The notes under the pieces were generated by a model. It saw only the letters and a list, made by a program, of their open reading frames with translations. It had not been told where the DNA came from and did no database searches. From positions 1-42,350 of the IMG/VR virus record IMGVR_UViG_2636415673_000001: a stretch of 42,350 bases of DNA, one strand, 5' to 3'. Below, one piece after another: positions 926 through 42,350 of the stretch. Position numbers and translations under genes: made by a program. Origin of the DNA: a virus (taxonomy: Duplodnaviria; Heunggongvirae; Uroviricota; Caudoviricetes). The number at the start of each line of letters is the position of its first letter. The first letter of the stretch is position 1.

Positions 926-1288
926 ATGTTAAATATATTTGCAAGGTACACCTCGATTGGTGTGCTGAACACACTTATACACTGGGTGGTTTTTGGTGTA
1001 TGTATCTATGCCGCGCATACCAATCAGGCTCTGGCAAACTTCGCAGGTTTCGTTGTGGCTGTGAGTTTTAGCTTCTTCGCGAATGCAAAATTCACATTCA
1101 AAGCATCAACTACAACGATGCGCTACATGTTATATGTCGGGTTCATGGGAACACTCAGTGCTACTGTTGGATGGGCTGCTGATAGATGCGCACTTCCCCC
1201 GATGATAACTCTTGTCACCTTCTCCGCCATCAGCCTGGTGTGCGGTTTCGTCTATTCAAAGTTCATTGTCTTTAGGGATGCGAAATGA
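926..1288 (+). CDS. gtrA: GtrA, bactoprenol-linked glucose translocase (flippase)
   Basis: 120-aa hydrophobic protein with GtrA-family N-terminus ([13 protein letters not shown]...); first gene of a three-gene operon overlapping gtrB by 4 nt. Confidence 0.85.
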
Positions 1289-2199
1289 AAATTTCTTTAG
1301 TCGTTCCGGTCTTTAACGAAGAGGCCACGATACCTATTTTTTATAAAACCGTGCGCGAATTTGAAGGGCTTCAGCAGCATGAAGTCGAGATAGTCTTCAT
1401 AAACGATGGCAGCAAAGACGCTACAGAATCAATTATCAACGAGCTTGCTGTTGCCGACCCGCTTGTGGTTTCGCTGTCGTTCACACGTAACTTCGGCAAA
1501 GAACCCGCCCTGTTCGCAGGTCTGGACCATGCTACCGGGGAGGCAATTATCCCGATTGACGTTGATCTGCAAGACCCTATCGAAGTTATTCCTTACTTGA
1601 TAGAGAAATGGCAGGCCGGTGCAGATATGGTTCTGGCTAAACGCTCTGACCGCTCCACTGACAGCAGGCTGAAGCGTAAATCTGCTGAGTGGTTCTATAA
1701 ACTTCATAACAAAATCAGCAACCCTAAGATAGAAGAAAATGTTGGCGACTTCCGGCTCATGTCTCGCGAAGTAGTAGAAAACATTAAGCTCATGCCAGAA
1801 CGAAACCTGTTTATGAAGGGTGTGCTGAGCTGGGTTGGTGGTCGAACCGATGTCGTAGAATATGCGCGAGCAGAACGCGTTGCAGGAAGCACAAAGTTCA
1901 ATGGATGGAAGCTCTGGAACTTAGCGCTGGAAGGGATCACTAGCTTTTCTACTTTCCCTTTGCGCATGTGGACTTATATAGGCCTGTTTGTGGCAACCTT
2001 ATCATTCCTTTATGGAGCATGGATGATTGCTGATAAATTGATGTTTGGAAATAGTGTTCCAGGTTACCCTTCTATCATTGTATCAATATTGTTTCTTGGT
2101 GGAGTTCAGTTAATAGGCATAGGAGTTCTTGGAGAGTATATAGGAAGAATTTATGTTGAAGTTAAGCAACGACCAAGATACATTCTAAAGGATAAGTAA
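1285..2199 (+). CDS. gtrB: GtrB, bactoprenol glucosyltransferase (GT2 family)
   Basis: 304 aa; N-terminal GT2 signature (VVPVFNEE...FINDGSKD), C-terminal TM helices; ATGA overlap with gtrA. Confidence 0.9.
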
Positions 2200-2200
2200 A

Positions 2201-3667
2201 ATGACTTTAAATATAAAAAAAACAGCCATATATATCATTGGATTTATATTCTTGACTTTCTTCTACGCCTCGATTTCAAAACAGATTTTGCCAAGTTCGG
2301 ATGCTGTTTCTGGACTTCTTGAGGGTAAGGACATTGCGGACGGAAATTGGACGCTTAGTGGATGGTATCTCTCTACAGTATCATTCTATTTTACAGACAT
2401 AATATGGTACGGGCTTGCTTCAAAGGTATTCTGGTACGGACAGTACCAAGCATACTGCATACCGGCAATTATGTATTCAATGGTTACATTGATGACATTT
2501 TATCTTTCAAAAGAAAGGCTTTCATCGTTATGGGCCATTTCATTTTGCGTTGCGCTGCCTTCTGGGTTTGCAGTATTAAACGTATTAATACCTGTGATAC
2601 ATGTCGGCACATATGTATCCATGTTGTTTTGCTTCATAATGTTAGACAATTTTTCCAAAACAAGATCGTTAATTTCTCTATCTCTTTATATTTTAGTGTT
2701 AGTTCTAGCTTGTTTCAGTGATGACATCATAAAGCTACTCATTATTGCACCAGTAGCAATATCATCAGTGGTTTTTATAGTAAAAACCAAAAGCCAAAAA
2801 AATCTGATCATACTAGTTGCAACTATATTTGCATATGTTGCATCAAAAATTATGACCATGTACGCAAGAGCTCATAACTGGTACATTTTGCCAGGCGTTC
2901 CAGATCCAACATTTGTTGCATTTGATGATATCCTGAATAATTTATACTTATTCGTAAAAGGATTCCTCCTATACAGTGGAGCTTTCTTCTTTGGCAAATC
3001 ACCTTCTGATATTACAGCGCTTATTTCTGTTTTTTGTTTTGTTGTAATGATTTTACTTCTTATATTAGTTGCAATGTCAGTAAAGGAAATATTCAAAACC
3101 TCCATGGTCAATATGGCTATATGTATAGCTTGTATTATAATGATACCAGCATACCTTGCAAGTAACCGTCCAATAGATGAATGGACTATAAGATATATCG
3201 TTCCATTTTTTATACTAGCACCTGTTGTTATTGGCAGATCTAACAACTCCAGAGGGTGGAAATTCATCGCATTAGGGGTTGTTACAACATTTATTCTCTT
3301 TTGTTCTATTTATATGCATGAAAAAAAAGACAATTCTAATGATATTATAAATCAGATAAAACACACTGTAAGGCAGAATAACCTCACAAACGGGTATGCA
3401 TCTTTCTGGTTTGCTTCATCAGCAAGTATAGATGGAGACATATCAATTGCTCCGATTGATGTAAACCGAGGTTTGAATATACTTGCATGCAATAAATGGT
3501 TGTCAAAAAACTATTGGTATGAGCGCGGAGGAAATTTCATAATTACAGATGATGAGGTTATGAGAAATATAACAATTAAAGAGATTGGTAATCCATCAAA
3601 GGTTATTGACGTCGGAGATAAGAAGATTTTTGTTTACGATAAAAACATTACATTCAACTGCAATTAA
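2201..3667 (+). CDS. GtrC-type serotype-specific O-antigen modifying glycosyltransferase (polytopic membrane protein)
   Basis: 488 aa, many TM segments, strongly AT-rich; third position of a gtrAB operon between attachment site and tailspike as in P22/Shigella serotype-converting phages. Confidence 0.7.
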   Translation: MTLNIKKTAIYIIGFIFLTFFYASISKQILPSSDAVSGLLEGKDIADGNWTLSGWYLSTVSFYFTDIIWYGLASKVFWYGQYQAYCIPAIMYSMVTLMTFYLSKERLSSLWAISFCVALPSGFAVLNVLIPVIHVGTYVSMLFCFIMLDNFSKTRSLISLSLYILVLVLACFSDDIIKLLIIAPVAISSVVFIVKTKSQKNLIILVATIFAYVASKIMTMYARAHNWYILPGVPDPTFVAFDDILNNLYLFVKGFLLYSGAFFFGKSPSDITALISVFCFVVMILLLILVAMSVKEIFKTSMVNMAICIACIIMIPAYLASNRPIDEWTIRYIVPFFILAPVVIGRSNNSRGWKFIALGVVTTFILFCSIYMHEKKDNSNDIINQIKHTVRQNNLTNGYASFWFASSASIDGDISIAPIDVNRGLNILACNKWLSKNYWYERGGNFIITDDEVMRNITIKEIGNPSKVIDVGDKKIFVYDKNITFNCN

Positions 3668-14299: not shown

Positions 14300-15595
14300 T
14301 CACGCAGTCTGGTTAGGCAGACCAACACCAATTGCCTCTGGTCGTACAGCACATGCTGAATACCACACAGCAATACGGCACTTACCAGACAGAGTGTTGA
14401 TATCACCCTGCGTTGCGAAGATGCCGTTAACACCAATGCCAGGAATGCTGAAGGAAGACGTTTTCATGCCAGCAAACAGTTCATGGGTTACCGGGATCGG
14501 CTGAGATAGCAGACGGATTGAGTCATCAGCCCAGAACACGTTAGCGGTGGTTGTTGCCACGTTCAGAACGTTTACCGTAGTGGTATCAGCAAGAGAGGTG
14601 TTTACGTTAGCGTAAGCCTTCTCTTCTTTTGTCAGTGACGCGTCATCCAGTGCAATCGGCTTCGGCGTGATTTCGATGTGAGTACCATCGATCACACGGG
14701 TGATTGAGAAAGTAGCATCATCAGTTAGCACGTTCTTCGCCATCTGAGACAGGAATTTCACACCAGTGAAACTGATTTTGTCGCCGCGCTTAAATCCGGT
14801 GGTGGAGGATACGGTCACCGTTGCAACACGGTTGTCGACGTTCTCTTTGTTACCATCGGTATCAAGGGTGTATGCCTGCGGCTTAAACTTCTGCGCACCA
14901 GAAACAGTTACACCAGTAGCGGTTGACTTGGTAACTGCCGGAAGTTTCGGTGAGCGAAGAATTTCATCAAAGCCAGCAATCTGACGCTGAATAGTACCGT
15001 TGCGATACGCGTCTTCAGTAACGCGACCAAAGATGTCACCATCTACCAGGTTGCGGCCTGCTTTACGGTAATCGTCAGGGTTCAGGAAGTAACTGATGCC
15101 CATATCGCGGTTGAGTTCGCGGGAGAACATCAGGCGCTCTGCATCAGACACAAAATCCCAGCCAGACAGGCCAGTAGATGGACCAATTGCGCGGGTATCG
15201 TGAACAACAAGCGAGCCCATTTCAGTTGCCTGTTTGGCAATCGCTGACTCAATGTTATTCGCCAGTTTTTTGGCAGATGCCTGGATGCGGCGACGGTAAG
15301 AACGCTCATCACGCAGGTCATCTGCACGAAGCTCGAAGAAATCGTTATCCGGATCGCCCATGTTGCATTTCACGGAGAGTTCCAGAATCCCGGTTGCGTT
15401 GCCAGTTAAATCCCAGCCAGTCTGGGTTGGCGCTTCCTGCTCAACAGGCATCCACACGGTGTTGCTTGAACGCTGCATGGATTCTGCCGGAGGGGTGTAT
15501 TTTGTCACTTTTGACGCCATTGGCGTCAGATTCTGGACGGTTTCGATGATTTCATCCAGAGCATACGTGACCAGTTGACCTTCATTTAATGCCAT
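14300..15595 (-). CDS. Major coat protein gp5
   Basis: 431 aa; strong match to remembered P22 coat (MALNEGQ...GVGLPGQTA). Confidence 0.95.
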
Positions 15596-21704: not shown

Positions 21705-21923
21705 TTAATCATCTGGGTAATTAAGCGGCATCCAGTGTGTAACCTTGCTTGCTCCTGAATCGATGAATGCCTTGGTTCTCTGCCAGTAAGAGCCCATACA
21801 TGATAGTTTGAACACGTCACCAGTATCAGTAAGAGCTATAACCTCTTTAGACCACATTCCTTCTTTGCTTTCTGGTAGCCGGTGTTCAACATTGACCCAT
21901 TGGTTTCCGTTATCATCCATCAC
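21705..21923 (-). CDS. DUF551-like small protein
   Basis: 72 aa; C-terminal W-MPL-P motif shared with C-terminus of 38333..38878; followed by hairpin plus U-run near 21665..21695. Confidence 0.55.
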   Translation of the reverse strand: MMDDNGNQWVNVEHRLPESKEGMWSKEVIALTDTGDVFKLSCMGSYWQRTKAFIDSGASKVTHWMPLNYPDD

Positions 21924-22159
21924 AACCTCGTCTTGTTGTTCGCCATAGATTCAGTGGCAGGCGGTGACGAGTCCGCTTTTCGGGAGCTACCCTAGCCACT
22001 GCTTGATTCTATCCGATGTCTTTCCATCAGTCCGCCACCACAAAGAATCTTTTTTGCCATAAGGCTGGAGGTTCATCTTTCAGTGGCTGCCAGTGTTATT
22101 TCCCCACTTACTGGCTTGGGTTGTTTCGTGGTACTGCTGTTAATTAGTGAGTCCTGGGA

Positions 22160-22645
22160 TTATTTCAGTTCGTTACCAGGAATTTCTTTTAGCTCTTTCA
22201 AATGACAACGATTGAGGCTAAACCACTCCCCGTGCGACCTATAGTTGTAATATTTTTGGTGCAATTTGGTTTCAAGCTCTCTATCGGCCGGAATCTTTGC
22301 AATTAGATTTAGCTTCCCACCACTCATGCGAGATATCTCTGAAATTCGTTTATTAACCCTGCGACTAAACCCTATTTTTGTTAGCCCACTATCTTCAGCA
22401 TGCAGAACGTACACATATGATTTTTGCGAAGCACTGGGTGCGACTTTGTTGTAATTAATCATGTCAAACATGAAGCCTTGCTTTAGCAAAGTTTCAAAAA
22501 AGATAGAATTAACACACCCATTCCTTCTCAGCTCTGCACTTAGCTTGTCAATTTCCTCTATGATGTCGCCAGACCCCTTTCCACTTATAAGAAAATCTTG
22601 GTACATGCGACCAATTCTTGAGGTAATTTCAACAAAGTTATTCAT
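22160..22645 (-). CDS. T5orf172 / GIY-YIG-like domain protein (putative nuclease), AT-rich moron
   Basis: 161 aa; motif YVYVLHAEDSGLTKIGFSRRVNKRISEI...GEWF typical of T5orf172-type GIY-YIG domains; AAGGT RBS. Confidence 0.6.
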   Translation of the reverse strand: MNNFVEITSRIGRMYQDFLISGKGSGDIIEEIDKLSAELRRNGCVNSIFFETLLKQGFMFDMINYNKVAPSASQKSYVYVLHAEDSGLTKIGFSRRVNKRISEISRMSGGKLNLIAKIPADRELETKLHQKYYNYRSHGEWFSLNRCHLKELKEIPGNELK

Positions 22646-22989: not shown

Positions 22990-23457
22990 TCATCGAAGGC
23001 ATTGCGTCCTGATGTATTCCTGAAGCGTTCTCAGTGCTGTTTGGTCGCTGATGATTCCGTCCCGGATACCGAGAACGTTTCGTCCAGCAACTGGAGAGAG
23101 TTCGACGGTGGCATCATTGCCCATGCCGGAGGCGCTGGAGGTTTCGGCTGAGGATGGCACAGGGCATTTTCCTTTGACGAGCACCCGACCACCATTATCA
23201 AGCTTGCGCCGAAGAGCATCATTTTCAGCTTTCGCATCAGCTAACTCCTTCGTGTATTTTGCATCGAGCGCAGCAACATCACGCTGACGCATCTGCATGT
23301 CAGTAATTGCCGCGTTCGCCAGCTTCAGTTCTCTGACATTTTTGTCGCGCTGGGCTTTGTAGGCGATGGCGTTATCACGGTAATGATTAACAGCCCACGA
23401 CAGACAGACGACGATGCAGATAATCAGAGCGGAGATAATCGCGGTTACTCTGCTCAT
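22990..23457 (-). CDS. Rz: Spanin inner-membrane subunit Rz
   Basis: 155 aa; lambda Rz-like N-terminal TM and coiled coil. Confidence 0.9.
23031..23237 (-). CDS. Rz1: Spanin outer-membrane lipoprotein Rz1 (embedded in Rz, +1 frame)
   Basis: Lipobox VVGCSS and Pro-rich stretch; fully embedded in Rz as in lambda. Confidence 0.8.
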
Positions 23458-23930
23458 ACCTCAATCTCTCTGACCGTTCCGCCAGCTTCTTTGAATTTTG
23501 CAATCAGGCTGTCAGCCTTATGCTCGAACTGACCGTAACCAGCCCCCGGCAGTGAAGCCCAGATATTGCTGCAACGGTCGATTGCCTGACGAATATCACC
23601 GCGATCAATCATCGGTAAAGCGCCACGCTCCTTAATCTGCTGCAATGCCACAGCGTCCTGACTTTTCGGAGAGAAATCTTTCAGTCCAAGCTGCTTACGG
23701 TAGGCATCCCACCAACGGGAAAGAAGCTGGTAACGTCCGGCTGCTGTTGATTTGAGTTTGGGGTTTAGCGTGACAAGTTTGCGAGGGTGATCGGAGTAAT
23801 CAGTGAATAGCTCTCCGCCAACAATGACGTCATAACCATGATTTCTGGTTTTCTGACGTCCGTTATCAGTTCCCTCTGACCACGCCAGCATATCGAGGAA
23901 CGCCTTACGTTGATTATTGATTTCCACCAT
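23454..23930 (-). CDS. R: Endolysin R (lytic transglycosylase)
   Basis: 158 aa matching lambda R. Confidence 0.95.
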
Positions 23931-24237
23931 CTTCTACTCCGGCTTTTTTAGCAGCGAAGCGTTTGATAAGCGAACCAATCGAGTCAGTACCGATGTAGCC
24001 GATGAACACGCTCGTTATATAAGCGAGATTGCTACTTAGTCCGGCGAAGTCGAGAAGGTCACGAATGAACCAGGCGATAATGGCGCACATCGTTGCGTCG
24101 ATTACTGTTTTTGTAAACGCACCGCCATTATATCTGCCGCGAAGGTACGCCATTGCAAACGCAAGGATTGCCCCGATGCCTTGTTCCTTTGCCGCGAGAA
24201 TGGCGGCTAACAGGTCATGTTTTTCTGGCATCTTCAT
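23914..24237 (-). CDS. S: Holin S (S107/S105 dual start)
   Basis: Matches lambda S; Met1-Lys2-Met3 dual-start motif present. Confidence 0.95.
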
Positions 24238-24479
24238 GTCTTACCCCCAATAAGGGGATTTGCTCTATTTAATTAGGAATAAGGTCGATTACTGATAGAA
24301 CAAATCCAGGCTACTGTGTTTAGTAATCAGATTTGTTCGTGACCGATATGCACGGGCAAAACGGCAGGAGGTTGTTAGCGCAGCCTCCTGCCACCCGCTT
24401 TCACGAAGATCATGTGTAGAAGGCCGCAGCGTAACTATCACTGATGAGTTCAGGATAGCCAGTGGCTACGGCTCAGTTA

Positions 24480-24555
24480 TGGTGCTGGTTAACGGACTTG
24501 AACCGCTACCCATTCGCTTACAAGGCGACTGCTCTACCATTGGAGCTAAACCAGC
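24480..24555 (-). tRNA. tRNA-Thr (anticodon UGU), phage-borne
   Basis: 76 nt folding by hand into a cloverleaf: 7-bp acceptor GCTGGTT/AACCAGC, D-stem GCTC/GAGC, anticodon loop CTTGTAA, T-loop TTCAAGT, encoded CCA; one G-A mismatch at top of anticodon stem. Confidence 0.65.
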
Positions 24556-24560
24556 ATATT

Positions 24561-24635
24561 TGGCGGGACAGCGTGGACTCGAACCACGATAAGAAGGTTA
24601 ACAGCCTTCCGTAATGACCTTTATACGACTGACCC
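24561..24635 (-). tRNA. tRNA-like gene, anticodon GUU (Asn); possibly degenerate
   Basis: 75 nt; anticodon arm GAAGG-CTGTTAA-CCTTC and T-arm CGTGG-TTCGAGT-CCACG perfect, encoded CCA, discriminator G; U-U mismatches in acceptor and D stems. Confidence 0.5.
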
Positions 24636-24640
24636 AAATA

Positions 24641-24665
24641 AAAAATCCCGAAACCGTTATGCAGG
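24641..24665 (-). terminator. tR' (late operon terminator, Q-antiterminated)
   Basis: Minus-strand ...gcataacggtttcgggattttttat matches remembered lambda tR'. Confidence 0.75.
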
Positions 24666-24822
24666 CTCTAACTATTACCTGCGAACTGTTTCGGGATTGC
24701 ATTTTACAGACCTCTCAGCCTGCGATGGTTGGAGTTCCAGACGATACGTCGAAGTGACCAACTAGGCGGAATCGGTAGTAAGCGCCGCCTCTTTTTATCT
24801 CACTACCACAACGAGCGAATTA
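24666..24822 (-). ncRNA. Short pR' leader transcript (lambda 6S-RNA equivalent), approximate bounds
   Basis: Region between pR' and tR' matches the lambda 6S RNA template as remembered; no ORF in the track. Confidence 0.45.
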
Positions 24823-24860
24823 ACCCATCGTTGGGTCAAATTTACCCAACTTTATTCAAA
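24823..24860 (-). promoter_or_regulatory. pR' late promoter with overlapping qut site
   Basis: Minus-strand TTGACT (24857..24852) - 17 nt - TAAATT (24834..24829), as in lambda pR'; directly downstream of Q. Confidence 0.7.
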
Positions 24861-24909
24861 AAGTCAATATCATGCCGTTAATATGTTGCCATCCGTGGCA
24901 ATCATGCTG

Positions 24910-25533
24910 CTAACGTGTGACCGCATTCAAAATGTTGTCTGCGATTGACTCTTCTTTGTGGCATTGCACCACCAGAGCGTCATACAGCGGCTTAACAGTG
25001 CGTGACCAGGTGGGTTGAGTAAGGTTGGGGATTAGCATCGTTACAGCGCGATATGCGGCGCTTGCAGGCATTCTTGAATAGCCGACGCCTTTGCATCTTC
25101 CGCACTCTTTCTCAACAACTCTCCCCCACTGCTCTGTTTTTGCTATATCAACCGCACGGCCTGTACCGTGACAATCTCTGCATCTTGCGCCCGGCGTCGC
25201 GGCACTACGGCAATAATCCGCATAAGCGAATGTTGCGAGCACTTGCAGTACCTTTGCCTTAGTATTTCCTTCGAGCTTTGCCACACCACGGTATTTCCCC
25301 GATACCTTGTGTGCAAATTGCATCAGATAGTTGATAGCCTTTTGTTTGTCGTTCTGGCTGAGTTCATGCTTACCGCAGAATGCAGCCATTCCGAATCCGG
25401 CTTGTGATTGTGCCATCCCCATAGCAGCCATCACATCAGTACCGGAAAGAGAGTCAGAAGCCGTGGCCCGTGGTGAGTCGCTCATCATCGGGCTTTTTGG
25501 CGAATGAAATTTAGCTACGCTTTCGAGTCTCAT
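24910..25533 (-). CDS. Q: Late antiterminator Q
   Basis: 207 aa essentially identical to remembered lambda Q. Confidence 0.95.
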   Translation of the reverse strand: MRLESVAKFHSPKSPMMSDSPRATASDSLSGTDVMAAMGMAQSQAGFGMAAFCGKHELSQNDKQKAINYLMQFAHKVSGKYRGVAKLEGNTKAKVLQVLATFAYADYCRSAATPGARCRDCHGTGRAVDIAKTEQWGRVVEKECGRCKGVGYSRMPASAAYRAVTMLIPNLTQPTWSRTVKPLYDALVVQCHKEESIADNILNAVTR

Positions 25534-28310: not shown

Positions 28311-30191
28311 TTAATACTCCGTCACGTTTTCCTGTCGCCACGCCTCGTCATATTCCGATTTCGGCATATTGGCGATGTAGCTATATGGCGATCCTGATTC
28401 AAGTTGCAGGAACTGGTGCGATTGCTCGTCAAGGAACAACGGGACACCACCTTCCCAACCTTCGCCGTTACGTTGTTTTTCAAGCATCAAAACAGATGCC
28501 GGAGATGCCAGTAGCTGTTCGTCCTTCTCTGACATCTTTTCACCACTCTGAACTCTCTGTAACGCTCTCTCGCGAGCCTTGTTACGCCAGATGATAAAAA
28601 GGTTGTCTGTCAGGTCTGTTATCGCTCCAGAGCCTTTTACGTCCATTTTCCCGGTTGGTTTTTCTTCGCTGTCTCCTTTTCTGGAGTGAGTAACGAGAAT
28701 GACGTGGGAGTTTGTTTTGTTTTTGAAGTCACAAATCGAGTCAACAAATGCTTTCTGCCCGTTATAGTCATCGTCACCTATGCCGCATTTCATCAGGCTG
28801 TCGATGATGAATAACTGGATGCCGTATCGGCGGCGAGCGTAGTCGAATATTTCGATCAGCCTGTCGGCTTTCGCCGTTCCGGTCAGGCCAAACACCCAGA
28901 GTCTTTCGTCATAAAATTTAAATGCAGAGTCAATTTCCAGCACTGGCGGCATCTTGCAGCACGTTGCCTGACGGGTAAGTCGCTTAAGGAGAATACCAGG
29001 CTTCAGCTCAAGTGACGCGATGCATGTCTTCACACCCTGACGCATTGCCTCAAGTGCCATATGCCCGACAACCTCCGTTTTTCCGTGACCGTTCACACCA
29101 TTGACCAGCGTCAACTCTGCCTCACGGAACTGGAATTTATCTGCCAGAGATTCCCACGGTGGATTAAACAGATACTGCTGCTTGCCGTAGAAAGCGTTGA
29201 TAGTGTCCTGGTAAAACTCTCGCGCGCTGTAGAGTTCTTCAGGGTCGAAGTAGGATGCCGTGCCGATGTACTGCCAGATTTCATCCTCGGTAACACCGTT
29301 CATCAGGCATTCGTTGATGTCTTTGTACGGCAGAGTAACAAGACGGCAACGATGTTCACCGAGTCGGCTTGCGATTTCCCTTGCGGCTTCACGACCAACA
29401 TCATCAACGTCCATCGAGATGAATATTTCCTCAAACCTGTCGAGGTTGTGATACTCAAACTCAATCCACTGTTGCTTAGCGCCTTTTCCTCCACCAAACG
29501 GCACGGATAACGCCGAGATGCCGTATTGCGCATAGCTCATACAATCAATTTCGCCTTCGCAAAGCACAACCGCCCTCACGCCAGCGTCCAGAGCCTGCCA
29601 TCCGAACAGACAAGGTTCACAATCACCTTCTGCCATAATGACTTTCTTCCCGTCCGGGCGCTCAGTGCTGATTCGCTTGACCTGCAACAACTCACCATCG
29701 CGTTTGTACGGAAGCACCAGTGCATCAAGTTCTCGTTCTCCATTCCACACCTTGCCGCTGACAACCTCGTAGCGCTTTACGACTTCTGGCGATATGCCAC
29801 GCGATTGCAGGTACTCAAGATGGGATTCTGTTCTGGTAACGTAGCGGGCTATTTTCTTGCGATCAGGTCTGGAGAATTTCTTCTCACGTTTGGCATCGAA
29901 ATGGTGATCGTCATCCTTGATACCGAGAAATGCTTTCGCTTCCTGCATAGCCTGATGCAGGTTAATTCCACGACATGCCATCCACAAATCAAGCATGTCA
30001 CCGCCGTCTCCCTCAGCGAAATCAGCCCATTTTTTCTTGCCGCTAAGATTGACCTTAAGGCTGTTTCCCTTGTCACCGTTGACGTTACCGGCAACCCACT
30101 CATGCCCCTCTTTCTTGCCGTTTGGCAACAGGTGCGGAGCCACCCTGTCAACCTGCGCCCAAAGCAGGTCGCTAAGTTCACTTGGCGTCAT
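28311..30191 (-). CDS. Bifunctional DNA primase/helicase (Toprim primase N-terminal, DnaB/RecA-like helicase C-terminal)
   Basis: 626 aa; Walker A NGVNGHGKT, Walker B-like LFIIDSL, N-terminal primase-like region. Confidence 0.8.
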   Translation of the reverse strand: MTPSELSDLLWAQVDRVAPHLLPNGKKEGHEWVAGNVNGDKGNSLKVNLSGKKKWADFAEGDGGDMLDLWMACRGINLHQAMQEAKAFLGIKDDDHHFDAKREKKFSRPDRKKIARYVTRTESHLEYLQSRGISPEVVKRYEVVSGKVWNGERELDALVLPYKRDGELLQVKRISTERPDGKKVIMAEGDCEPCLFGWQALDAGVRAVVLCEGEIDCMSYAQYGISALSVPFGGGKGAKQQWIEFEYHNLDRFEEIFISMDVDDVGREAAREIASRLGEHRCRLVTLPYKDINECLMNGVTEDEIWQYIGTASYFDPEELYSAREFYQDTINAFYGKQQYLFNPPWESLADKFQFREAELTLVNGVNGHGKTEVVGHMALEAMRQGVKTCIASLELKPGILLKRLTRQATCCKMPPVLEIDSAFKFYDERLWVFGLTGTAKADRLIEIFDYARRRYGIQLFIIDSLMKCGIGDDDYNGQKAFVDSICDFKNKTNSHVILVTHSRKGDSEEKPTGKMDVKGSGAITDLTDNLFIIWRNKARERALQRVQSGEKMSEKDEQLLASPASVLMLEKQRNGEGWEGGVPLFLDEQSHQFLQLESGSPYSYIANMPKSEYDEAWRQENVTEY

Positions 30192-34640: not shown

Positions 34641-35246
34641 ATGAGCAAAGAATTTTACGCAAGACTGGCAGCTATTCAGGAGAATCTGAACGCGCCAAAG
34701 AATCAGTACAACTCATTCGGTAAATATAAATACAGAAGCTGCGAAGACATTCTTGAAGGCGTTAAGCCGTTACTGAATGGCCTGTTTTTATCAATCAGCG
34801 ATGAAGTTGTGTTGATTGGTGATCGGTATTATGTGAAAGCCACGGCAACTATTACCGATGGCGAAAACAGTCATACGGCAACCGCTCTTGCACGAGAGGA
34901 AGAAAGCAAGAAAGGAATGGATTCTGCACAAGTTACGGGAGCCACAAGCTCTTATGCACGCAAGTATTGCCTCAATGGTTTGTTCGGCATTGATGATGCG
35001 AAAGATGCAGATACCGACGAGCATAAACATCAGCAGAACGCAGCAGCAAAGCAATCAAAACCATCACCTACACCTGAACAGGTTCTAAAAGCATTCACTG
35101 ACGCAGCATTGCAGAAAAACACCGTGGAAGAGCTTAAACAGGCGTTCGCCAAAGCGTGGAAGATGCTCGAAGGCACACCGGAGCAGCACAAAGCGCAGGA
35201 CGTTTACAACATCAGACGAGACGAATTAGAAGGAGCTGCTGCTTAA
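34641..35246 (+). CDS. erf: Erf single-strand annealing recombinase
   Basis: N-terminus MSKEFYARLAAIQENLNAPKNQYNSFGKYKYRSCEDILEGVKP matches P22 Erf. Confidence 0.9.
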   Translation: MSKEFYARLAAIQENLNAPKNQYNSFGKYKYRSCEDILEGVKPLLNGLFLSISDEVVLIGDRYYVKATATITDGENSHTATALAREEESKKGMDSAQVTGATSSYARKYCLNGLFGIDDAKDADTDEHKHQQNAAAKQSKPSPTPEQVLKAFTDAALQKNTVEELKQAFAKAWKMLEGTPEQHKAQDVYNIRRDELEGAAA

Positions 35247-35629
35247 TGGCACATTCGATTACTGTAAGACTAAACAAGCCCGCAAGAGAGTTTCAGGCCG
35301 GGGAAAATATCGGATTCAACATCCGTGCTGGCGTTCAGTATTACGATCGCCAGACAAAAAAGAAAGAATGGACAAACTACAGCGCCGTTGTATTTGCCAA
35401 GCCGGGAGCGCAAGCGGATTACTACCGTAGTGTTCTTGTTGAAGGTGGCATTGTAGAAATTACCGGAGAAAACATCAGGGTTGATGTTTATCAGGGGCAA
35501 AATGGTCAATCAATCACTCTTGAATTACTGAATGCAAAGATTGGATTTGCAACTTCAGGAAACAGCCAACAGCAGCAAAGTAGCAATCATCAAAATCATC
35601 CTGAATACGACGATTCAATTCCCTTCTAA
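35246..35629 (+). CDS. SSB-like protein with canonical acidic C-terminal tip (DDSIPF)
   Basis: 127 aa; stop-start overlap with erf (TAATG); AGGAG RBS; C-terminal ...PEYDDSIPF resembles the E. coli SSB tail DDDIPF. Confidence 0.6.
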   Translation: MAHSITVRLNKPAREFQAGENIGFNIRAGVQYYDRQTKKKEWTNYSAVVFAKPGAQADYYRSVLVEGGIVEITGENIRVDVYQGQNGQSITLELLNAKIGFATSGNSQQQQSSNHQNHPEYDDSIPF

Positions 35630-35652
35630 AGTAGCAACATAAGGATTCCATT

Positions 35653-35949
35653 ATGCCAGCGCCTCTGTATGGTGCGGATGACCCACGCCGCTGTTCCGGC
35701 AATTCCGTATCGGAAGTGCTGGATAAATTCAGAAAAAACTACGATCGAATAATGTCTCTACCGCAGGAATCGAAAGAGGAAAAGGAATTTCGCCACTGTA
35801 TATGGCTTGCAGAGAAAGAAGAACGAGAGCGAATTTACCAGACATCAATCCGACCATTCCGCAAAGCCACATATACCCACTTCCCTGAATATATCGACCC
35901 GCGCCTGCGTAATTACCGCTCACGCTATGGCGCTATCAGTAATGACTGA
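35653..35949 (+). CDS. Hypothetical early protein (size and position compatible with a P22 Abc-type anti-RecBCD protein; not verified)
   Basis: 98-aa ORF with RBS. Confidence 0.5.
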
Positions 35950-40932: not shown

Positions 40933-41005
40933 TGATTTTATTTTGACTGATAGTGACCTGTTCGTTGCAACAAATTGATAAGCAATGCTTTTTTATAATG
41001 CCAAC
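40933..41005. promoter_or_regulatory. lambda attP P' arm (Int arm-type and IHF sites)
   Basis: Matches remembered lambda P' arm; arm-type motif ctgatagtgacctg. Confidence 0.8.
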
Positions 41006-41020
41006 TTAGTATAAAAAAGC
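41006..41020. other. attL: attL core (15-bp lambda common core)
   Basis: ttagtataaaaaagc, identical to 568..582; int-proximal junction. Confidence 0.9.
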
Positions 41021-41066
41021 AGGCTTCAACGGATTCATTTTTCTATTTCATAGCCCGGAGCAACCT

Positions 41067-42350
41067 GTGAACACATTTTCAGTTTCCCGTCTGGCGCTGG
41101 CATTGGCTTTTGGCGTGACGCTGACCGCCTGTAGCTCAACACCGCCCGATCAACGTCCTTCTGATCAAACCGCGCCTGGTACCTCTTCTCGCCCGATTCT
41201 GTCGGCAAAAGAAGCGCAGAATTTCGATGCTCAACACTATTTTGCATCCCTGACACCAGGTGCGGCAGCGTGGAATCCTTCCCCGATTACCCTGCCTGCA
41301 CAACCTGACTTTGTTGTCGGCCCGGCGGGTACTCAAGGTGTAACGCATACCACGATTCAGGCGGCGGTAGATGCGGCAATTATCAAGCGTACCAACAAGC
41401 GCCAGTATATTGCCGTGATGCCTGGTGAGTATCAGGGAACGGTATATGTCCCTGCCGCTCCGGGTGGAATTACTCTGTACGGTACAGGTGAAAAACCGAT
41501 TGATGTGAAGATTGGGCTTTCCCTTGATGGGGGCATGAGCCCTGCCGACTGGCGTCATGACGTCAACCCGCGCGGCAAATATATGCCAGGTAAACCAGCG
41601 TGGTATATGTACGATAGCTGCCAGAGCAAACGCAGCGACAGTATCGGCGTTCTCTGCTCTGCGGTCTTCTGGTCACAAAACAATGGCCTGCAACTGCAAA
41701 ACCTGACCATCGAAAACACGCTGGGCGATAGCGTAGATGCGGGTAACCATCCGGCGGTGGCACTGCGTACTGATGGCGACAAAGTGCAGATCAATAACGT
41801 CAACATTCTCGGTCGTCAGAATACCTTCTTTGTCACCAACAGTGGTGTGCAAAACCGTCTGGAAACCAACCGTCAGCCGCGTACTCTGGTGACCAACAGT
41901 TACATTGAAGGGGATGTGGATATCGTTTCTGGTCGCGGCGCAGTGGTGTTCGATAACACCGAATTCCGCGTGGTGAACTCACGTACTCAGCAAGAAGCGT
42001 ATGTGTTTGCACCGGCTACGCTGTCTAACATCTATTACGGTTTCCTCGCCGTAAACAGCCGTTTCAATGCTTCCGGTGATGGCGTGGCGCAACTGGGTCG
42101 CTCGCTGGATGTTGATGCCAATACCAACGGTCAGGTGGTGATCCGTGATAGCGCCATCAACGAAGGTTTTAACACGGCGAAACCGTGGGCCGATGCGGTG
42201 ATTTCCAATCGTCCATTCGCAGGTAACACCGGCAGCGTTGACGATAGCGACGAAATACAACGCAATCTGAATGACACTAACTACAACCGCATGTGGGAAT
42301 ACAATAACCGCGGCGTGGGTAGTAAAGTGGTTGCAGAGGCGAAGAAGTAA
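41067..42350 (+). CDS. ybhC: YbhC, pectinesterase-like outer-membrane lipoprotein; host gene on the gal side of attB
   Basis: 427 aa; GTG start with GGAG RBS; lipobox LTAC; matches E. coli YbhC as remembered. Confidence 0.9.
   Translation: MNTFSVSRLALALAFGVTLTACSSTPPDQRPSDQTAPGTSSRPILSAKEAQNFDAQHYFASLTPGAAAWNPSPITLPAQPDFVVGPAGTQGVTHTTIQAAVDAAIIKRTNKRQYIAVMPGEYQGTVYVPAAPGGITLYGTGEKPIDVKIGLSLDGGMSPADWRHDVNPRGKYMPGKPAWYMYDSCQSKRSDSIGVLCSAVFWSQNNGLQLQNLTIENTLGDSVDAGNHPAVALRTDGDKVQINNVNILGRQNTFFVTNSGVQNRLETNRQPRTLVTNSYIEGDVDIVSGRGAVVFDNTEFRVVNSRTQQEAYVFAPATLSNIYYGFLAVNSRFNASGDGVAQLGRSLDVDANTNGQVVIRDSAINEGFNTAKPWADAVISNRPFAGNTGSVDDSDEIQRNLNDTNYNRMWEYNNRGVGSKVVAEAKK

Follow-up and report, generated by a model that had tools for sequence, protein, structure and literature searches.

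The phage 21-type tRNA cassette Asn(GUU)–Thr(UGU) is already known from many lambdoid and P22-like phages and is widely annotated. According to the SfI paper, Sf6, ST64T, PS3 and phage 21 carry the tandem downstream of Q, and the Sf6 record annotates its tRNAs as "similar to phage 21". When it lists the highly expressed genes (TPM > 100), the transcriptome paper on the prophage BTP1 keeps the two prophage tRNA genes separate, and it has the lytic operon begin directly after them. The Thr gene has been linked to a function. P2 Old is the effector of the classic P2–lambda interference; it cuts host tRNA-ThrU and thereby kills the cell (Govande et al., NAR 2025, PMC12445682). In the same study, phage tRNA-Thr(UGU), including tRNA-Thr21 of phage 21, rescued cells and resisted P2-OLD cleavage; the UGU anticodon was required for rescue, tRNA-Thr21 decoded ACA in vivo, and UGU tRNAs were the only ones enriched in the suppressor screen (PMC12445682). 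Resistance of ThrU required both an altered CNG motif (nt 28-30 / 40-42) and a shortened anticodon stem (PMC12445682). An earlier note on the DNA studied here had drawn attention to two tRNA-like genes near the holin gene but overlooked that the cassette has long been known and widely annotated, and that its Thr gene is the subject of a published functional study.

The window, by which we mean the whole 42,350-bp stretch of DNA analysed, is a complete P22-like/lambdoid mosaic prophage. Host ybhC is found at its right end (40950-42350, plus strand), indicating that the prophage occupies the lambda attB site. The phage encodes a P22-type tailspike, gp3-type small terminase, portal and coat genes, a lambda-type integrase and gtr-like O-antigen modification genes. 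The gtr-like operon (926-3667, plus strand) has a low GC content of 0.35-0.47 and adjoins the tailspike; Pfam gave no match for the third gene of the operon (2201-3667, 488 aa). The recombination module (34641-35949, plus strand) consists of P22-type Erf, SSB and the anti-RecBCD protein Abc2 instead of lambda Red/Gam, and the replication gene (28311-30191, minus strand) encodes a 626-aa Toprim primase fused to a DnaB-like helicase in place of O/P. Within the late operon, in the interval between Rz and the small terminase and just 5' of a DUF551 ORF (21705-21923), lies an int-alpA RNA motif (21940-22002, minus strand; Rfam 45.1 bits against a gathering score of 35.8, E 2.9e-6), an unusual site for a motif named after integrase/alpA neighbourhoods. 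A 161-aa ORF (22160-22645, minus strand) with a MUG113/T5orf172 (GIY-YIG-like) domain lies in a stretch of low GC content (about 0.43) at the lysis/packaging moron slot, where Kapi1 has a highly expressed Tad2-like anti-Thoeris gene.

Across the whole window, ARAGORN predicts exactly two tRNA genes. They and their neighbours in the late-leader locus are as follows.

24910-25533, minus strand: Q late antiterminator, 207 aa, identical to lambda Q at 206 of 207 residues
24839-24867, minus strand: pR' late promoter, with -35 TTGACT at 24867, a 17-nt spacer and -10 TAAATT ending at 24839
24636-24698, minus strand: tR' intrinsic terminator of the 6S-type leader RNA, with the hairpin at 24646-24698 and the T-run at 24636-24645
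24561-24635, minus strand: tRNA-Asn(GUU), 75 nt, from ARAGORN (gtt) and Rfam RF00005
24556-24560, minus strand: tRNA-Asn/tRNA-Thr spacer, 5 nt AAUAU, from the CCA of Asn to G1 of Thr
24480-24555, minus strand: tRNA-Thr(UGU), 76 nt, from ARAGORN (tgt) and Rfam RF00005
24238-24479, minus strand: untranslated lysis-gene leader, homologous to the lambda segment upstream of S (alignment)
23914-24237, minus strand: holin S, 107 aa, the first late protein gene, from the ORF and the annotation in identical or near-identical phages
23454-23930, minus strand: R endolysin, from the ORF and the annotation in identical or near-identical phages
22990-23457, minus strand: Rz spanin, from the ORF and the annotation in identical or near-identical phages

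The earlier note had folded two cloverleaves by hand, assigned them the anticodons UGU-Thr and GUU-Asn, and proposed that tRNA predictors be run on them; ARAGORN called both genes and rejected neither, and Rfam agreed at the same coordinates. The RF00005 scores, 61.5 bits (E 4.6e-11) for tRNA-Thr and 55.3 bits (E 2.2e-9) for tRNA-Asn, compare with a gathering score of 29 bits. In the alignment, both tRNAs contain U8, A14, G18 G19, U33, A37, a TUC-type T-loop and an encoded CCA, and the anticodon loop of each is the same as that of its host counterpart, asnT or thrU. The E. coli synthetases recognize tRNA-Asn by G34 U35 U36 and G73, and tRNA-Thr by G1-C72, C2-G71 and G35 U36. The AsnRS identity set is complete in tRNA-Asn, and tRNA-Thr carries G1-C72, C2-G71, G35 U36 and A73. 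Judged by their sequence features, both genes are genuine and look functional; expression, processing and charging would be expected.

The tRNA genes share their strand with Q, S, R and Rz. In the alignment, pR' differs from lambda pR' at two positions, and the same sequence is labelled pR' in the identical HK446 sequence; a lambda-type qut region lies just 3' of it. The terminator tR' is nearly identical to lambda tR' (fold -28 kcal/mol, z = -3.96), and its T-run TTTTTTATTT (24636-24645) touches G1 of tRNA-Asn with zero gap. The ORFs, the lambda alignment and the tR' fold thus bear out the placement of the cassette on the late-operon strand, directly after tR', that the earlier note had given. 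A search for sigma-70-like sites in 24200-24950 found pR' alone, with no promoter belonging to the tRNAs and none on the plus strand. An independent tRNA promoter or an antisense promoter thus finds no support, as nothing besides pR' in that region matches the consensus. For Kapi1 lysogens, whose prophage shares the cassette, an RNA-seq paper describes a clear antisense signal over the tRNAs, comparing it with a BTP1 signal between the tRNAs and the holin gene; this signal could be a strandedness artefact of an abundant tRNA, or could come from an unrecognised promoter.

The alignment with lambda also changes how the slot is to be described. About 160 bp had been noted as absent from lambda, and the sequence does differ; however, in lambda the slot is filled by about 163 bp of unrelated sequence that is not tRNA, so the cassette is a replacement and not an extra insertion. 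The idea that lambda's ~163 bp are decayed tRNAs was rejected, since ARAGORN makes no call there and Rfam finds nothing at E <= 1. Similarly, the tRNAs had been said to abut S without a cargo ORF. We found no credible cargo ORF on the late strand between tRNA-Thr and S, but the tRNAs do not abut S, as 242 nt of leader, almost identical to lambda's, intervene between tRNA-Thr and the S start codon. The sole ORF on the leader strand in this interval is a 50-aa GTG ORF, and lambda is without an annotated gene there.

The earlier note had further pointed to two U-U mismatches in the Asn-like gene and suggested that it may be degenerate or a decoy. These mismatches are real: one is U4.U69, in the acceptor stem, and the other U13.U22, in the D stem. 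Other observations also point in the direction of decay. The gene scores 55 bits in Rfam against 75 bits for the P1/N4-type Asn gene, it is only 59-65% identical to host asnT and to P1/N4-type phage tRNA-Asn, its fold has a z-score of merely -1.74, and no Asn codon bias (see below) was found. Nevertheless, the z-scores of genuine host tRNAs are similar (-1.7 to -2.0), the AsnRS identity nucleotides are all present together with CCA, and the D-arm (U8 C9, G10 U11 A12 U13 ... U22 U23 A24 C25) is that of E. coli glyT, where U13.U22 with C9 is the native state. Among 17 distinct variants of tRNA-Asn, in which the D-arm was fixed by the search pattern that gathered them, the cloverleaf is 90.5% paired, compared with 33-52% for slid controls, and 8 pairs are changed on both sides, a value reached by 0 of 500 shuffles. 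Examples of such double changes are A6-U67/G7-C66 to G-C/A-U and A28-U42 to C-G. U4.U69 is retained in 15 of the 17 variants while other stems vary only by compensation, so in these sequences it is a conserved feature and not a sign of decay. In the P22/L/ST160 group, tRNA-Asn has stayed unchanged while the second, Thr-derived gene beside it decayed. From sequence comparison, tRNA-Asn belongs to an outlier lineage and is intact and under purifying selection, and we consider it highly improbable that it has degenerated or serves as a decoy outside translation. Its most likely role is to add capacity for decoding Asn codons.

The tRNA-Thr gene and that of phage 21 (record AJ237660.1) agree at 76 of 76 positions. 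Identity falls to 83-88% against the tRNA-Thr(UGU) genes of P1 and N4-like phages, and to 72% against host thrU. Among homologues of the window gene, 21 variants in all, pairing stands at 93.6%, and in 10 pairs both partners have changed, which none of 500 shuffles matched. The anticodon arm has UCG/CGA and a G27.A43 mismatch where thrU has CUG/CAG and A27-U43, and the mismatch shortens the anticodon stem. This state, present in 17 of the 21 variants, combines with the UGU anticodon to give the features associated with resistance to P2 Old, i.e. the anticodon, an altered CNG motif and a shortened stem. As judged from the identity to the phage 21 record, we infer that the tRNA-Thr21 of the functional study is the exact sequence in the window. 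The likeness to tRNA-Thr21 extends to the C28U/G42A loss of the CNG motif, the UGU anticodon and the shortened stem, but the settings differ: the study used a plasmid promoter in Gam+ Old+ cells, while the gene in the window sits in its native late leader, in a phage with Abc2. The RecBCD modifier of the window phage is Abc2, not Gam, and Abc2, unlike Gam, does not trigger P2-OLD (PMC12445682). A benefit against Old may therefore not apply in this genome.

We next consider how widely the cassette occurs. Of 5426 complete E. coli genomes, 369 (~7%) carry it, annotated by PGAP, and the exact junction of lambda tR' with tRNA-Asn occurs in 87 complete E. coli genomes. From Q to S, HK446 and mEp506 match the window at 100% identity, and phiv205-1 and Kapi1 at about 99%; the records of mEp506 and Kapi1 annotate both tRNAs. 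The 165-nt cassette is 100% identical in HK446, mEp506 and CurroJimenez, 99.4% in phage 21, Sf6 and SfI, and 97.6-98.8% in several Salmonella phages. Of ~100 viral contigs that carry the cassette, the tR' is of the 21 type in roughly 70 and of the lambda type in roughly 15, and both junctions read TTTTTTATTT before G1. The spacer between the Asn and Thr genes is AATAT or AACAT in most homologous loci. In Dewey and IME10, two phages whose late genes match those of the window at about 95% identity, the slot holds a lambda-type segment and no tRNA genes, which indicates that the cassette is dispensable and that ACA-rich late genes can work without it.

The array in the slot after tR' also varies. 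It reads Asn-Phe-Thr in Tbat2_3 and Asn-Phe-Thr-Arg in Klebsiella phage Mulock. Other loci carry Asn-Thr-Gly, in which both the 3' half of the Thr gene and the Gly gene look like their host counterparts, thrU and glyT, and there are Asn/Gly deletion fusions across the common GGTTCGA of the T-arm that no tRNA finder calls. Seven viral contigs hold a chimeric tRNA-Thr with a phage 5' half and a thrU-like 3' half. The possibility that these chimeras are footprints of satellite integration was rejected because the loci hold an Asn-Thr-Gly array like host thrU...glyT, in addition to the Asn/Gly fusions, and the HE-PICI paper gives no support for satellite integration into a phage tRNA.

To relate the tRNAs to translation, codon usage was compared between the late genes and the host, as the earlier note had proposed for ACA and the two Asn codons. 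ACA is about three times more frequent in the window phage than in E. coli genes. In the 19 late genes it makes up 27.2% of Thr codons (16.6 per 1000), compared with 10-12% (5.4-6.9 per 1000) in two 50-kb samples of K-12, giving an odds ratio of 3.05 (p = 1e-13); in lambda late genes the share is 13.5% (difference from the window late genes, p = 5e-7). The expected enrichment thus holds for ACA, and Asn codons are likewise commoner in the window late genes (55.9 per 1000 vs 37-39.5), but these genes show no synonymous shift towards AAC. The SfI paper similarly found a bias for ACA and no bias for Asn. Some counts speak against a strict need for the tRNAs. The early genes, which are translated before the tRNAs can be made, use ACA just as heavily (31.6%), and Q itself has 4 ACA codons. 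Among the late genes, the coat gene (14300-15595, minus strand), the most highly expressed of them, uses host-preferred codons, with ACA at 3 of 44 Thr codons and AAT at 3 of 24 Asn codons, while ACA and AAT are abundant in the other late genes; in the tailspike, ACA accounts for 18 of 44 Thr codons. Comparing codon usage between viral contigs with and without the cassette was underpowered, at 23 loci against 2 (p = 0.37), and ACA/Thr spans 0.11 to 0.32 among the viral loci with the cassette.

Our proposal is that the locus carries a functional, mobile tRNA cassette that supplies late decoding, a reading in which we have considerable confidence, with any fitness benefit to the window phage being one that we infer. 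Because the cassette lies in the late-operon leader directly after tR' and has no promoter of its own, its expression would depend on Q: the cassette and the genes for lysis and the virion would be transcribed together from pR', and only after Q-mediated read-through of tR'. Mature tRNAs with their encoded CCA would then be released by RNase P and by exonuclease trimming at the 3' end, and these would keep ACA and AAY codons readable during late protein synthesis. tRNA-Thr(UGU) would back up thrU, the host's only UGU tRNA. Decoding of ACA and Asn codons could in this way be sustained both normally and when Old-type nucleases deplete thrU.

Several other readings of the locus have to be weighed against this proposal. 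The cassette might be a neutral passenger, a mosaic module recombined at conserved flanks without benefit to the window phage. It is an optional allele, as Dewey, IME10 and lambda have a lambda-type segment in the slot; it occurs behind either the 21-type or the lambda-type tR', with the same junction at both, and before differing holin types; and the content of the slot changes, from Asn-Phe-Thr(-Arg) to Asn-Thr-Gly and the deletion fusions. A neutral module would, however, not be expected to show compensatory changes and near-invariant loops and identity elements in diverged copies, which point to purifying selection, nor does neutrality sit well with the presence of the cassette in about 7% of E. 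coli genomes or with the demonstrated function of the identical Thr gene. We therefore regard neutrality as improbable, while noting that the cassette is mobile and optional, so that selection for its benefit may have acted in other genomic backgrounds. Still less probable, and in our view hardly credible, is that the cloverleaves act mainly in cis as RNA-processing signals, with RNase P detaching the 6S/qut leader and setting the 5' end or the stability of the late mRNA. The fusion of the cloverleaves to tR' upstream of S would suit such a role, and RNase P processing is expected for any embedded tRNA. Yet lambda, Dewey and IME10 express their lysis genes from an equivalent leader without a tRNA, and a processing handle needs no conserved anticodon, identity elements or encoded CCA.

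A further alternative places codon supply second and holds that both tRNAs are kept mainly as resistant replacements against the Toprim or anticodon-arm nucleases of rival prophages. A more specific form of this idea is that the cassette is an anti-nuclease pair against P2-OLD-type cleavage, in which tRNA-Thr replaces thrU and tRNA-Asn replaces asnT. The rescue of cells from P2-OLD by tRNA-Thr21, identical to the window gene, speaks for it. So do the anticodon arms of the Asn tRNAs: host asnT has the traits of an OLD substrate, A37 and a paired CGG/CCG motif, whereas tRNA-Asn of the window has AAG/CUU with no CNG on either strand, and the tRNA-Asn genes of P1 and N4-like phages are also without C28/G42. 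In the OLD kinetics, host tRNA-Asn(GUU) is one of the more slowly cleaved comparison tRNAs, and the residual growth defect was attributed to other cleaved tRNAs (PMC12445682). The recurrence of the Asn-then-Thr tandem among unrelated coliphages would fit as well. Against it, the suppressor screen enriched UGU tRNAs alone, the stem of tRNA-Asn is not shortened (G27-C43) although the resistance of ThrU took both changes, and the Klebsiella-type variant of tRNA-Asn carries the full CAG/CUG motif. Moreover, Abc2 of the window phage does not activate P2-OLD, and the tRNAs would be made late while RecBCD inhibitors act early. As an account of why both tRNAs are kept, we consider nuclease replacement rather unlikely, and the paired role of tRNA-Asn and tRNA-Thr against Old-type cleavage is a tentative idea that we would bet against. 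Were it true, A28-U42 and U4.U69 would be adaptations escaping Toprim or other tRNA-targeting nucleases of rival prophages.

Some related observations concern tRNA-Asn and other nucleases. The main compensatory change in tRNA-Asn is between A28-U42 (E. coli/Salmonella/Shigella type) and C28-G42 (Mulock/Klebsiella type), and it falls exactly where the P2-OLD CNG motif is made or lost. Cleavage of tRNA-Asn and tRNA-Thr by PARIS/AriB was considered and is unsupported, as the text of that paper reports tRNA-Lys. The retron/PrrC170 paper reports no rescue by tRNA-Asn.

In summary, a tRNA cassette for late decoding remains our preferred reading. Its discovery value is small, as descriptions of the cassette go back to the work on phage 21 and Sf6. 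The analysis corrects the view of tRNA-Asn as degenerate or a decoy, reveals the slot as a polymorphic, optional tRNA array, and links the window to a concrete phage-versus-prophage conflict.

Compared with known systems, the Asn-Thr tandems of P1 and N4-like phages have the same anticodons and order as the window and Thr genes that are 83-88% identical, but their tRNA-Asn is of a different lineage (59-64% identity) and their genomic context is unrelated. The positional analogy to Stx phages, raised by the earlier note, holds: 933W is arranged as Q, pR', qut, terminators, ileZ-argN-argO and stx2AB, and its slot likewise lies 3' of Q/pR'/qut/terminator and 5' of the lysis genes. The 933W tRNAs differ: one carries Ile and two carry Arg, serving the rare codons AUA and AGA/AGG, and 933W has an annotated putative tRNA promoter and toxin genes after the tRNAs, whereas the window has neither. 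The tRNA-plus-toxin moron of the Stx type is thus not what the window contains, as there is no cargo operon before the lysis genes. The P22/L/ST64T group has a tRNA-Asn identical to that of the window at the same position; its second element, however, has a 4-nt deletion and an abnormal anticodon arm, with no ARAGORN call and 42 bits in Rfam, while the Thr gene of the window is intact. The decayed second tRNA is found at 1286-1361 of the phage L locus and at 881-960 of the ST160 locus, and the tRNA-Leu(TAA) of the phage L record is probably a mis-annotated, decaying tRNA-Thr. The cassette of phage 21, Sf6 and SfI has the same genes, order and 5-nt spacer as that of the window, and likewise lies after tR' and before the holin gene. 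It stands behind a 21-type Q/qut/tR' in phage 21 and Sf6, whereas in the window it follows a lambda-type Q (99%), pR' and tR', a combination already present in HK446, mEp506, Kapi1 and phiv205-1.
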